A stretch of 64,000 nucleotides of DNA. Source: an uncultured Lachnospiraceae bacterium (lineage in GTDB: Bacteria > Bacillota > Clostridia > Lachnospirales > Lachnospiraceae). The number at the start of each line of letters is the position of its first letter. Within the stretch, counting starts at the first letter, position 1. Both the position numbers and the translations under genes were made by a program. The stretch spans positions 35,417 through 99,416 of the forward strand of contig CAREEU010000007.1 of the NCBI GenBank assembly GCA_948964755.1. Direction: 5' to 3'. The notes under the pieces were generated by a model that made no database searches, was not told the origin of the DNA, and saw only the letters and a list, made by a program, of their open reading frames with translations. This document shows, one piece after another, positions 1 through 64,000 of the stretch.

Positions 1-1000
1 ACAAAGTCATTTCTATAAAAAGAAAGGGACACCATAGTTCCCTTTTCTTCCGAATCTTCCGAATCTACAGCCAATCCAATTCCTAACTTATCACAAAGAC
101 GTCTGCAAAGATACAGCCCCATACCAGTAGAATTAGAAACCCTCCTCCCATTCTGCCCGGTAAATCCTTTTTCAAAAATACGGCACAAATCCCCTTTCGA
201 TATGCCCATCCCATTATCCTCTGCATACAAAACCACCTGCCCCTTTTTCTCTGCTGCAAAAAAATGCAGCACCGGCTGCTCGGTACGATACTTTACCGCA
301 TTACTAATAATCTGATTCAAAATAAACTGCACCCACTTACTATCGGTATAAACACAATATTCCATCTCATCCACTAGAACCGTCATATTGCTTTGCCGAA
401 GAAGATATTTATTCTCCCCAATCGCCTCATGTACCATATCCCCAAGCCTAACTTCCCGAATCAAATAATCTTTTTCTGTATGTTCACTGCGGGCATAATA
501 GAGGGTCTGCTCTGTAAACCGATTTACATTTTCCAATTCCGCCAGCAAATCCCTGGTAAACTCAAACCGATTATTTACACATATCAGCTTTATTGCGGTA
601 ATCGGCGTTTTTACCTCATGAATCCACTGTTCAATATATTCTTTATACTCCTTTCGCTCCCTCTGCACCTCACCAATCTTTTCAAGCATCGACTTTTCCG
701 CCAGTTTCATAATCTGATAAAACACCTGTTCCCCTGCTCTCTTTGGCACAGCAATCACCTCCGGTATTAAATACCGCTCCTCTAACTGCTCCGCCGTCTC
801 TAACAACTGACGAAAATATCTTTTTCTTATACCATAAAGAACACAGACATAAAAAATAAAAACCACTGTCCAAACAACTACAATAAACAAAACAACCGAA
901 ACAACATTCCCATTAGCCATTAAAAACAAAGCCAGCACCAGCATACCCAAAAGATTGATAAAAATAACCGGCAGCAGATTCTTCCAATACTGTCCTCCAT
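1..1000 (-). CDS. sensor histidine kinase, BceS/VanS-like intramembrane-sensing type (C-terminus runs off window edge)
   Basis: Reverse-strand reading from ATG at 1000 is open to position 1 (about 333 aa). Two N-terminal TM helices with no periplasmic domain. H-box HEVKTPIT, N-box NAVKY, G1 EDNGMGI, G2 GMGLYL. Not in the ORF track because no stop lies inside the window. Confidence 0.8.
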
Positions 1001-1693
1001 TCATAACAAATACCCCTGCCTATGCTTCGTCTTAATAAAATCCTTCAAACCGATTGCTGCCAGTTTCTCACGAATCCGAGTCATATTCACACTAAGAGCA
1101 TTATCATCTATATAGAGTCGATTATCCCAAAGAAAATCCACTATATCATTACGAGAACAAATCTTCCCCGCATTTTTAAAAAGATAAAAAAGAATCTTTA
1201 ACTCATTTTTCGTTAATTCCGCTTTTTGTCCCCGATACTCTATCCGACTGCTTTCTAAATACAAAACAGCCCCATTCCATCTAAAAACCTCCGCCTGCTT
1301 AAAAGCATACACCCGCCGCAGCAAAGCAGCAATCTTCGCAAGCAAAATAGCGGTATTATAAGGCTTTGTAATAAATGCATCTCCCCCCAGCATAATACTA
1401 TTTAACTCATCCATATCCGTATTGCTGCTCGTTACAAATACAATCGGCATATCCGAAAAAACCCGAATCTGCGAACACAATTCAAACCCACTCTTCTCCG
1501 GCAGTTTGATATCCAAAAGAACCAAATGCGGTGCAAAAACCTTTAATTCCTCTATCGTCTTAGAAAAATCCGCAACCGTAGCCACTTCATATCCATTTCC
1601 GGCCAATAAATTTTTTAACTGTACCTGTATCCCCTGATCATCTTCTATTATCATAATCCTATATCGATTCCATTCCATTCCTATTTCTCCCAT
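1001..1693 (-). CDS. OmpR-family response regulator (receiver + winged-helix DNA-binding)
   Basis: MIIEDD...LLDIKLPEKSGFEL receiver motifs and a C-terminal winged-helix region. Start ATG at 1693 is preceded by GAGGGGGAAG. Stop abuts the HK start (1000/1001). Confidence 0.85.
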   Translation of the reverse strand: MGEIGMEWNRYRIMIIEDDQGIQVQLKNLLAGNGYEVATVADFSKTIEELKVFAPHLVLLDIKLPEKSGFELCSQIRVFSDMPIVFVTSSNTDMDELNSIMLGGDAFITKPYNTAILLAKIAALLRRVYAFKQAEVFRWNGAVLYLESSRIEYRGQKAELTKNELKILFYLFKNAGKICSRNDIVDFLWDNRLYIDDNALSVNMTRIREKLAAIGLKDFIKTKHRQGYLL

Positions 1694-1860
1694 CAGCAAA
1701 CTTCCCCCTCTACACCTTTCAACATAATACCCATTATCAAAACCCAATTTTCTATCCTCTACTATCTCTGCAAACGCAAATTTATAAATGCAAACAAAAC
1801 TATTCTTATCCTACTATACCACTTTTTCATCCCAAATAACACTTTTTTCTACACTTTTAG

Positions 1861-2019
1861 TCAAATCGGATATTCGCAATCTGCTTCGCTACTTGCTCAT
1901 AACCTCATAGCTGCTACCGCAACTTTTCAGTGGGAGTCTGCACTCCCACTGAAACAAGGAAGTCCCCCGCTTCTAAGCCGCCAAGGCGAAAGCGGGGGAC
2001 TTCCTTAATGAGGTTAAAA
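1861..2019 (+). repeat. short hairpin element family 2 (SHE-2), full-length modular copy
   Basis: aatcggatattcgcaat..aacctcat [agctgc..gcagct][tttcagtggg..cccactgaaa][caaggaagtccccc..gggggacttcctt] atgaggttaaaa. Recurs at 11391, 37654, 40187, 49178 and 63810. Confidence 0.8.
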
Positions 2020-2180
2020 TAAAAACAAAAAACACATAACAAACACGGAACACTGGAATAAATAAATAAAATAAAAGAAAAGAAAAAAAAATCATAAACC
2101 AACCAATAAAAAAATATATCCAGCAAACACCCAAAATCAATCTAATTTCATAACAAAAAACAACAAAAGGTAAAAACAAA

Positions 2181-2441
2181 ACATAAATTGTGCCATAATA
2201 CAGCCAGAGTGCATTAGGGGTACACGGTGACTTCGTAGGAAAGTTAGAGGCTCTTAGACTTCTGTCGATCCATTAGGATTTTTTGCCATTCTCGAATGGC
2301 AAAAAAAGGGGTGTGTTTAGCCCGCTGTACGGGCGAATTGCACCCCGATCCGTCCGGTTAGATACACCCAACACCAGAAGTCTTAGAGCCTCTTACTTTC
2401 CGAAGAGCGGAACCGTGTACCCCTAATGCACTCTGGCGTCC
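2181..2441 (+). repeat. long palindromic element family 1 (LPE-1) copy A; A-type core, alpha-type 5' flank; preceded by an A-rich low-complexity tract at 2030-2200
   Basis: Conserved ends GCCAGAG/CTCTGGCGTCC. Long stem of about 65 bp encloses the core ttttttgccattctcgaatggcaaaaaaaggggtgtgtttagcccgctgtacgggcgaattgcacccc..ccgtccgg. Family has 9 copies in the window. Confidence 0.85.
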
Positions 2442-2465
2442 CCTCCGAAATCCTCTTTCCCCCTC

Positions 2466-63173: not shown

Positions 63174-63299
63174 CTGCTGGTGATTCCCTGCTGGGGCCGT
63201 TTGCACTAAGGCTTCCTCGCAGCGGACACATAAGGCACGAAAGTACCGTGCCTAAGTGCCGGCGGGAAGCAATACCCCTGCAGGGATTCACCAGCAGCT
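63174..63299 (+). repeat. element-3 repeat copy 3
   Basis: Same core as copy 1. Flanks ctgctggtgattccctgc / gcagggattcaccagcag. Confidence 0.8.
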
Positions 63300-63339
63300 A
63301 CAATCTGTCTATCTCAACGGAATGTTTGATAGAATCGCT

Positions 63340-63606
63340 TTACCAAGTTGTTTTCTGATCTTTATGTGTATAATGTTTCATCTGTACTAATAAATTGGAC
63401 AATTTTTCTTGATAATATTCTTTCTGTTTTTCATCCAGTTTATTTGCATCAAGATATTCCTGAAAAACCTTTTGAAATTCCTTTAAATTTTCTTGTGCTG
63501 CGTCTTTATAATTATTTGACATATTCATTTGTATCTTTTGTAAAATTATCTCTAACTGAGCATTTTTCTTTGCTTTATTTTTCAGATCTTTAAAAAATAA
63601 AAACAC
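63340..63606 (-). CDS. hypothetical small protein
   Basis: 88-aa ORF, K/E/Q-rich helical, no recognisable domain. Bracketed by inverted element-3 copies. Confidence 0.35.
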   Translation of the reverse strand: MFLFFKDLKNKAKKNAQLEIILQKIQMNMSNNYKDAAQENLKEFQKVFQEYLDANKLDEKQKEYYQEKLSNLLVQMKHYTHKDQKTTW

Positions 63607-63809
63607 GGATTTAATTTAACCTCCTAAATCTTTAAATTAAAAACATATCGCCTATTTTATATAAAAATGCGGAGAGAAATCCATATTTTTCCTCTCCGAT
63701 CTATTTACCATCTCTATTATAAAAGCAGCCTTAAAATTTTTCAACTATATTTTATTATAAATATAATATTCCATGTAAAACATAGGAAAATTTTCACTAA
63801 AGCATAAAA

Positions 63810-63917
63810 ATCAAAGGAAATTCGCAATCCGCTTCACTACTCGCTTATAACCTCATAGCCACTATCGCAACTTTTCAATGAAAGTCTAAAGTCTGCACTT
63901 CCTTGATGAGGTTAAAA
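63810..63917 (+). repeat. SHE-2 degenerate copy
   Basis: tcaaaggaaattcgcaatccgcttcactactcgcttataacctcat agccactatcgcaact tttcaatgaaagtct..ccttgatgaggttaaaat. Confidence 0.65.
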
Positions 63918-63938
63918 TAAGGTACAAAACAGCTCGCC

Positions 63939-64000
63939 CTAAGGGATCTTTCTTTGCAGGGGTATTGCTTCCCGCCGGCACTTAGGCACGGTCTTTTCGT
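63939..64000 (-). repeat. element-3 repeat copy 4 (inverted, truncated by window edge)
   Basis: ctaagggatctttctttgc aggggtattgcttcccgccggcacttaggcacgg matches the reverse complement of the core. Confidence 0.7.

Follow-up and report, generated by a model that had tools for sequence, protein, structure and literature searches.

The subject of this study is a stretch of 64,000 nucleotides from an uncultured Lachnospiraceae bacterium (contig CAREEU010000007.1; hereafter the window), in which several families of structured intergenic repeats had been predicted from the sequence alone. The most abundant family, LPE-1, was shown to be a lineage-specific variant of the TwoAYGGAY RNA motif (Rfam RF01731), and its ancestral unit was shown to be a composite of about 575 nt, in which a short (S) and a long (L) copy diverge from each other and are joined by two leaders. 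The original prediction had missed both points, namely that LPE-1 belongs with a described Rfam motif and that it forms a fixed composite doublet, of which many copies are one half. Based on the evidence given below, we lean towards the view, without great confidence, that these are TwoAYGGAY-type elements that multiplied in this lineage via a folded single-stranded intermediate read at its stem-base junction, and that are now old, fixed and maintained.

TwoAYGGAY has been described in gut metagenomes, Clostridia and gamma-proteobacteria, and its P1 stem is often very large, with 24 bp noted (Weinberg et al. 2010, PMC2864571). In a permissive Rfam scan, the copy at 48927-49102 (-) matched RF01731 end to end with a score of 68.2 bits (E = 3e-11), while the gathering score of the family is 43 bits. 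Three copies from the metagenome-assembled genome (MAG) introduced below, representing both length classes, scored 78.5, 70.8 and 55.5 bits on the same equivalent strand (three of 36 full copies). Since a gathering-threshold scan of the full window gave no TwoAYGGAY match and the permissive scan reported one of the nine window copies, standard annotation overlooks LPE-1; it would leave the family invisible and misses more than 90% of the copies. The unreported copies probably belong to TwoAYGGAY as well, as judged from the approximately 83% identity of their core to the matching copies. The terminal loops of LPE-1 are UUCUCGAA or CUUG, and CUGCA, and the loops of the RF01731 model fall into unaligned insertions of the LPE-1 cmscan alignment. 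The conserved UAGGAU and UUGGAU are located in junction strands rather than in loops, and the two core hairpins are flanked by two GGA-containing single strands, the invariant CUAGGAUUUU and the conserved GGUUGGAUAC.

The fold of LPE-1 was determined with RNAalifold from an alignment of 112 full copies of 240-262 nt (alignment A2), which gave 75 pairs. In this alignment 98.5% of the cells were paired, compared with 82% in shuffled alignments and 38-46% when the partner was slid by one to three columns. Compensatory changes were found in 49 of the 75 pairs, and none of 500 shuffles reached the observed values. A basal stem of about 45 pairs (helices 1-4, 97-99% paired) closes the conserved core, which consists of two hairpins (helices 5 and 6/7) inside P1/P1b and also shows compensatory changes. 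The variable outer arms are 55-60% identical between copies of the same class, and the core 83%. A conserved core with a copy-specific self-complementary stem had been proposed as the design of several families, and this design stands for LPE-1 and for the family that we call D11. The term copy-specific was overstated, however: the nearest-neighbour identity of the variable arms is about 82% and each copy has such a relative, so the stems are fast-evolving and related within subfamilies rather than truly copy-specific. The variable arms were also considered as guides, which was rejected as no real match of at least 16 nt to other DNA was present in 0.8 Mb.

The folding strand can be told from the pairs that have changed: read in the Rfam sense, they include 168 G·U pairs against 58 A·C mismatches, with two invariant G·U pairs left out. 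The bias is 77:6 in the inner basal helix P1b, where it is seen in both S and L and regardless of host-gene orientation, and the L outer stem shows no strand bias (56:39, p = 0.10). Since the copies lie in both orientations, mutation bias does not explain the excess of G·U. One fixed strand is thus under structural constraint as a single strand, and the active maintenance of its pairing suggests that the folded strand still has a role.

The 112 full copies comprise 45 of the S class and 67 of the L class, and the way in which they are paired is strikingly regular. All 43 LPE-1 pairs closer than 2 kb are divergent in the Rfam sense, and the 23 full doublets consist of 19 S+L, four L+L and no S+S combinations (p = 7e-4). 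Both classes carry a conserved leader, of 33 nt in S (consensus …AAACGTAAATTGTGGAACAATACAGCC) and of 45 nt in L (consensus …CCTCTAYGGATnnATGAATCAACnnTAAAYTTAYCGGCAGGAAAAAACAGCC). The shortest doublet centres, of 76-83 nt at five loci, are two leaders back to back, and because these minimal centres hold nothing but the two leaders, the unit is the composite described above, single copies are its halves, and the tandem arrays arose by duplication of leader modules. Longer centres are AT-rich and contain tandemly duplicated leader modules or inserted F2 elements, members of a further family treated below. Internal hairpin variants are shuffled between the S and L classes, giving mosaic copies. 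Open reading frames (ORFs) within long centres were considered as an autonomous parent and rejected, being ordinary genes (esterase-like, thiamine pyrophosphokinase-like, HD-domain and HTH proteins).

The two classes are also placed differently relative to genes. S copies lie in sense orientation upstream of genes, the gene on their 3' side being co-directional in 32 cases vs 10 (32/42; p ~9e-4), and L copies lie antisense just behind stop codons, the gene on their 3' side being convergent in 42 cases vs 16 (42/58; p ~9e-4). An A-run precedes ACAGC in 40 of 63 L copies vs 12 of 49 S copies, which corresponds to a U-tract right after the stem on the mRNA strand. In the window, the 3' ends of L copies are 19-52 nt from a stop codon; the exception is the copy at 53123-53382, at 138 nt, with a 34-nt array in between.

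The nine window copies, given here on the folded strand, include two doublets. In the first, the S copy at 21544-21787 (-; nhmmer) is sense to and upstream of the gene 20392-21534, and the L copy at 22382-22640 (+) is antisense and 22 nt from the stop codon at 22662. The centre is filled by a tandem array of 11 units of 39 nt (21796-22227, no strand assigned), which was found with the program TRF and whose units repeat the S 5' leader (GG(C/T)T-TATnATTCnnCAATTTACGTTTC, leader consensus). A C-rich repeat of two 13-nt units (22631-22658) overlaps the 3' tail of this L copy and extends beyond it. The second doublet consists of an S copy at 33282-33524 (-; nhmmer, alignment A2), a 45-nt x 2.8 array at 33541-33666 (no strand) made of the duplicated distal L leader module (CCTCTATGGATnnAnGAATCAAC), and an L copy at 33689-33950 (+), 40 nt from the thiC stop codon. 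Both arrays are leader-module duplications. Five further copies are present. The S copy at 2198-2447 (+; nhmmer, alignment A2) faces the convergent gene 2466-3959, with 19 nt between its 3' end and the stop codon of that gene, and the S copy at 48886-49136 (-) is the sole window copy reported by Rfam. The L copy at 38348-38610 (+) is 26 nt from the pncB stop codon, has a 66-nt x 2.6 array (38165-38333, no strand; TRF) on its 5' side, and is missing from the orthologous gap of a sister species. The L copy at 53123-53382 (+) has a C-rich 34-nt x 3.3 array (53380-53492) on its 3' side. The L copy at 42986-43244 (+) has the stop codon at 43296 on one side and a terminator-like hairpin (42961-42940, -) on the other, so the mRNA carries the complement of L.

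Several reading frames around the doublets deserve a comment. The TTG start of the ORF 20392-21534 (-) is probably too far upstream, as homologues of 341-368 aa cover 89-97% of it, so that the real gap to the S copy at 21544 would be longer. A 167-aa ORF at 33313-33816 (+) spans the second doublet and is annotated as a protein-coding gene in one public assembly (L207 9350-9853), but it is unlikely to be real; the 39-nt array is covered by ORFs of about this length (21769-22257).

D11 is a hairpin of about 155 nt with 50-55 pairs and strong covariation; among just 10 copies, two or more Watson-Crick types occur at 19-20 of about 50 pairs. Its G·U to A·C ratio is 27:3 on the strand reading ACAGC…GCGTCC. 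In 19 copies from both species D11 ends as 5'-(GG)AATACACAGC[stem]…[stem']GCGTCC(Y)-3', and LPE-1 ends as 5'-…AATACAGCCAGAG…CTCTGGCGTCCYCCCC-3'. The two families were thereby shown to share the stem-base junction 5'-ACA|GC…GC|GTCC-3' with unrelated cores, and they also share part of the 5' leader and the habit of divergent pairing. This combination of junction, leader and divergent pairing is the strongest evidence for a common mechanism. In the window, D11 copies at 8551-8703 (-), with the LPE-1-type junction, and at 9307-9460 (+), whose 3' end …CCTGCCTGCGTCCTCCCCCC is separated by 26 nt from the stop codon of 9486-9953, a convergent gene, diverge around a GNAT gene (8837-9289). A third copy at 63155-63314 (-) is sense to and upstream of ruvA, and its divergent partner at 63949-64000 (+) is truncated by the window end. 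An 88-aa ORF (63340-63606, -) lies between these two, and in the sister species a 167-aa ORF (L210 11927-12430) is likewise bracketed by a divergent D11 pair.

The other two families, F2 and D10, do not share the LPE-1/D11 ends, have no link to LPE-1 and are independent. F2 occurs near LPE-1 no more often than background (33% vs 35%); D11 and D10 occupy gaps other than those of LPE-1 (6-10% near LPE-1). None of D11, F2 and D10 matched an Rfam family at E<=1. The predicted mechanism of propagation or maintenance common to several families therefore holds for LPE-1 and D11 only, and not for F2 and D10, which have other ends and no LPE-1 association. Window copies of F2 are found on the minus strand at 1855-2019, 11387-11511 (a short form), 40182-40346 (53 nt upstream of the pncB start codon) and 63809-63920 (with an internal deletion), and the conserved F2 module alone at 37654-37704 (-, 30 nt upstream of the thiM start codon) and 49190-49226 (+). 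In the copy at 1855-2019 the hairpin tip at 1964-2019 (CGCTTCTAAGCCGCCAAGGCGAAAGCG) is inverted relative to 25 other copies. A 'flip-flop' of F2 was considered and rejected, with a single inverted tip in one copy and 25 in the other orientation. D10 copies, with no strand assigned, lie at 31103-31249 in a convergent gap, at 37867-37961 between the terminator of a thiamine pyrophosphate (TPP) riboswitch and thiM, and at 49315-49409 adjoining tRNA-Leu, and a partial copy at 40405-40440.

Taken as a whole, the repeats are a substantial part of otherwise ordinary DNA. Self-BLASTN of the window recovered 4,643 nt (7% of the window) of interspersed repeat in 21 intervals, every one intergenic, so the predicted structured families and their copy numbers are real. 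They comprise nine LPE-1, four D11, four F2 with two fragments, and three D10 with one partial copy, to which at least five tandem arrays are added (TRF). The families were matched to those predicted earlier (LPE-1, element-3 as D11, SHE-2 as F2 and module-5 as D10) on the basis of how many copies each has and of how the elements follow one another in the example region 48893-49445. The housekeeping character of the surroundings was confirmed by NCBIfam matches to polA, ruvA, ruvB, coaD, coaE, thiM and pncB and by a tRNA-Leu and a TPP riboswitch (ARAGORN, Rfam), and the predicted density and diversity of repeats in such DNA are real. The claim that nearly all co-directional gaps above 150 bp are filled also agreed with our own gene map, in which elements occupy 11 of 13 such gaps (exceptions 20072-20391 and 52062-52302), both convergent gaps and neither of the two divergent gaps. 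The window has 41% G+C, a strongly negative GC skew throughout and almost all long ORFs on the minus strand. One further side observation concerns the 812-aa protein at 40461-42899 (-), which matches Pfam MVP_shoulder, Vault_3 and Band_7 and has no NCBIfam match; at its position the sister species has a resolvase and a leucine-rich repeat/choline-binding protein.

We then considered whether the window samples a mere local cluster. A contig of MAG MGBC128194 (uncultured Lachnospiraceae, mouse gut, ~3.8 Mb in ~340 contigs) is 100% identical to window 2305-4546, and two further assemblies are 100% identical to the window over 11.3 and 10.7 kb; the window and MGBC128194 therefore represent one species. 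A 22-base core pattern was searched with one genome per species, and of at least 118 stretches listed, 114 were in MGBC128194 and four in a second Lachnospiraceae MAG. In the readable MGBC128194 sequence of about 0.8 Mb, which is roughly 20% of the genome, nhmmer gave 187 LPE-1, 55 F2, 19 D11 and 10 D10 hits. The 187 LPE-1 hits include 112 full-length copies and 52 cut by contig ends, from which it follows that the assembly breaks at LPE-1. The total is at least 165 LPE-1 copies in the ~3.8 Mb assembly, carried by at least 98 of the ~340 contigs. LPE-1 occurs once per 7 kb in the window and, taking the whole genome, at least once per ~23 kb; relative to the latter figure the window is at most about three times denser. 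Since all four families are multi-copy in the MAG and recur across its contigs, the density is not confined to the window and no mere local cluster was sampled. The crude non-coding fraction (9.6% here vs a median of 8.6% in relatives) was uninformative because spurious ORFs cover the repeats.

Comparison with other strains and species bears on the age of the elements. At least five assemblies obtained independently carry the same elements in the same positions; two of them match the window exactly over the covered stretch and the others are about 99% identical. No insertion polymorphism was found among strains in 20 kb across the ~99% identical assemblies; only the 66-nt array at 38165-38333 varies in unit number, with two more units in strain L200 (~99% identity). 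In the sister species, whose HD-domain protein is 89% identical, the doublet between thiC and the HD-domain gene is present but decaying, one copy having an insertion and the other being reduced to stem arms. In the window, 1012 nt separate pncB from thiM; in the sister species 295 nt do, and its gap contains neither the L copy and the array nor D10 nor the F2 module. From the terminator of the TPP riboswitch to the start of thiM (window 37623-37993) there are about 330 nt of repeats, made up of D10, unassigned DNA and an F2 module; at this place the sister species has about 100 nt with a remnant, GGAAGGACGCCAGAAAATGGGGTAC, resembling one LPE-1 end. In more distant Lachnospiraceae (71-78% identity) the four families were absent by nhmmer from 873 kb around pncB homologues of 71-77% identity and from L211-L213, with no structure-based search made. 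Phage or plasmid carriers were rejected, as the core pattern is absent from IMG/VR and eight looser 17-mer matches are due to chance. Recent LPE-1 copies were sought and none exceeded 92.6% identity. Neither the strain comparison nor the pairwise identity of copies gave any sign of current mobility, and because the copies are old and strain-fixed, we infer mobility solely from copy number, mosaicism and species differences.

The explanation to which we lean may be outlined as follows. The elements would have multiplied in the past via a single-stranded intermediate, either RNA or single-stranded DNA of one fixed strand, and a trans-acting factor not encoded by the elements would have read the fold and the stem-base junction of this intermediate. 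The insertions that were kept would mostly have been antisense L copies following stop codons and sense S copies preceding genes. All copies are now old and stable, and the folded strand might possibly be a small RNA, perhaps binding a CsrA-family protein. As a bolder extension, which we offer tentatively and hold to be rather doubtful, LPE-1 and D11 may be different structured cargo cores of one undescribed system that reads the ACA|GC…GC|GTCC junction on a folded single strand and builds divergent two-leader doublets. If true, this would be a new class of non-autonomous Bacillota element whose trans-acting enzyme is to be sought, and it would also explain TwoAYGGAY elements in other phyla.

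Here, we need to consider a number of observations that weigh against the past multiplication of a TwoAYGGAY-type element through a single strand. Among the 112 copies, the closest two are 92.6% identical and the best hits have a median identity of 88.7%, and five elements are unchanged in position among the ~99% identical assemblies, with a substitution density like that of genes. No target-site duplication was seen at the outer ends of 18 doublets, and doublet centres have no transposase-like ORF. The trans-acting enzyme suggested in the original prediction did not appear either, as tblastn of the ~0.8 Mb gave no match to IS200 (including IS200/IS605 TnpA), IS608 or RAYT. L copies fall within the 3' untranslated region (UTR) of a gene that lies upstream and is encoded by the other strand, and no sigma-70-like promoter was found in a scanned doublet, so transcription of the favoured strand is hypothetical. 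As for the membership in TwoAYGGAY, Rfam reports just one of nine window copies and three of 36 MAG copies, even at E<=10 in a 731-nt scan, and the name-giving AYGGAY is absent from both terminal loops in alignment A2 and in the cmscan alignment.

These points have to be set beside what other explanations can offer. One is that LPE-1 copies are ordinary host small-RNA genes, namely CsrA-family sponges or regulators that were duplicated and selected locus by locus with no mobility. Such genes would account for the finding that old copies are still 98.5% paired with a strand-specific fold, for the non-random orientation relative to genes, and for the GGA-containing strands CUAGGAUUUU and GGUUGGAUAC, both invariant on this account, beside the hairpins. 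Two CsrA-family paralogues (PF02599, 63 and 61 bits; L095 774-1049 (-) and L014 412-726 (-), both with extended C-terminal tails) were present in the sampled ~20% of the genome, and CsrA binding has been proposed for TwoAYGGAY (Gardner and Eldai 2014, PMC4333381). However, simple duplication does not scatter at least 165 copies so that each is in a different gap, the GGA motifs lie outside hairpin loops with two per element, no promoter-like sites were seen in a doublet, and L copies are antisense within 3' UTRs. Moreover, D11 has another core with the same ends, suggesting that the ends, and not the cargo, are what the process acts on. We therefore consider small-RNA genes without mobility a rather unlikely explanation.

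Another possibility is that the elements are DNA- or mRNA-level palindromes of the REP, BIME, REPIN or MITE type. Co-transcribed with the upstream gene, they would stabilise or terminate transcripts at the 3' end or act as insulators, and a RAYT/Y1-like enzyme encoded at another place would have spread them. This would fit the position of L copies close behind stop codons, one of them in front of a terminator-like hairpin, as well as the A-run before ACAGC, the mRNA-strand U-tract, in 40/63 L vs 12/49 S copies and the unbiased L outer stem (56:39, p = 0.10). The inverted pairs with compensatory evolution are also REPIN-like; Bertels and Rainey reportedly described REPINs in 2011 as inverted pairs with compensatory evolution. 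In addition, REP arrays of SBW25 adjoin TwoAYGGAY at a fixed place. On the other hand, the inner stem favours the other strand by 77:6, the conserved structured core of 170 nt far exceeds the needs of a terminator or a REP, and S copies are sense and upstream of genes. Neither RAYT nor TnpA(Y1) was found by tblastn, the only search used, in the ~20% of the genome, and the elements lack both a conserved GTAG-type foot and target-site duplications. This makes an origin as such palindromes improbable in our opinion, more so than small-RNA genes. Assembly artefact or chance resemblance could appeal to the fact that MAG contigs break inside elements, but the sister species and no fewer than five independent assemblies have elements at the same sites, and covariation goes far beyond controls; this reading is already refuted, and we assign it practically no weight. 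Multiplication of TwoAYGGAY-type elements through a folded single strand, followed by long maintenance, is the reading that we prefer among these.

Described in 2010, TwoAYGGAY is still an orphan among RNA motifs, and the present elements represent a second, independent lineage with a copy number near the Pseudomonas maximum (202). They provide testable handles: the composite S+L unit, a defined folded strand, a junction common to D11 and a rule of gene placement. On the practical side, Rfam misses most copies, MAGs break at the elements, and gene callers predict false proteins across them.

Several known systems resemble LPE-1 in part. Like REPIN/REP-RAYT elements, LPE-1 copies are intergenic, occur as inverted pairs that fold into hairpins, show compensatory changes of the arms and reach hundreds of copies. 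LPE-1 is, however, 5-10 times longer with a complex conserved core, its pairs are divergent with variable spacing, and it has no GTAG foot and no RAYT in the ~20% of the genome searched. Bacterial MITE and foldback elements (Correia, ERIC, RUP, BOX) are likewise non-coding, 100-600 bp long, intergenic, often co-transcribed and equipped with long inverted arms, whereas LPE-1 has neither target-site duplication nor autonomous parent, and its arms are strand-specific structured RNAs. Integron attC sites share with LPE-1 a conserved structure of variable sequence that is recognised as one folded single strand, but LPE-1 lacks an integrase, a cassette array and R/L boxes. Sponge RNAs of the Csr/Rsm system (CsrB, RsmY/Z) also present single-stranded GGA motifs, and this genome encodes CsrA-family proteins; the difference is that LPE-1 has two GGA motifs per element, outside loops, and hundreds of loci vs one to few.

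The closest relative is TwoAYGGAY itself. Its covariance model matches LPE-1 end to end above the gathering score, and both have two sequential hairpins on a common, very long basal stem, gut Clostridia as hosts with many copies per genome, divergent doublets a few hundred bp apart, and repeats on both flanks. In Pseudomonas, up to 202 TwoAYGGAY copies per genome were reported, along with divergent doublets (68%; median gap 249 bp), short repeats on the 5' side and long repeats on the 3' side; REP arrays lie at a fixed place beside TwoAYGGAY in SBW25, and elongated basal stems were noted in Bacillota (Li et al., bioRxiv 10.64898/2026.09.22.753630, 24 September 2026). The same 2026 preprint termed this behaviour 'mobile-element-like' in Pseudomonas, with function unresolved and mechanism not settled (bioRxiv 10.64898/2026.09.22.753630). 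High copy number, divergent doublets and flanking repeats are thus already known for TwoAYGGAY in Pseudomonas, and LPE-1 is a new variant. It differs in that its GGA motifs lie in junction strands and none occurs as AYGGAY in a terminal loop, in its two length classes with heterotypic pairing, in a doublet centre fixed as two leaders, in 5' array units of 13-66 nt vs 5-6-mers, and in the presence of at least 165 copies in a Bacillota genome.

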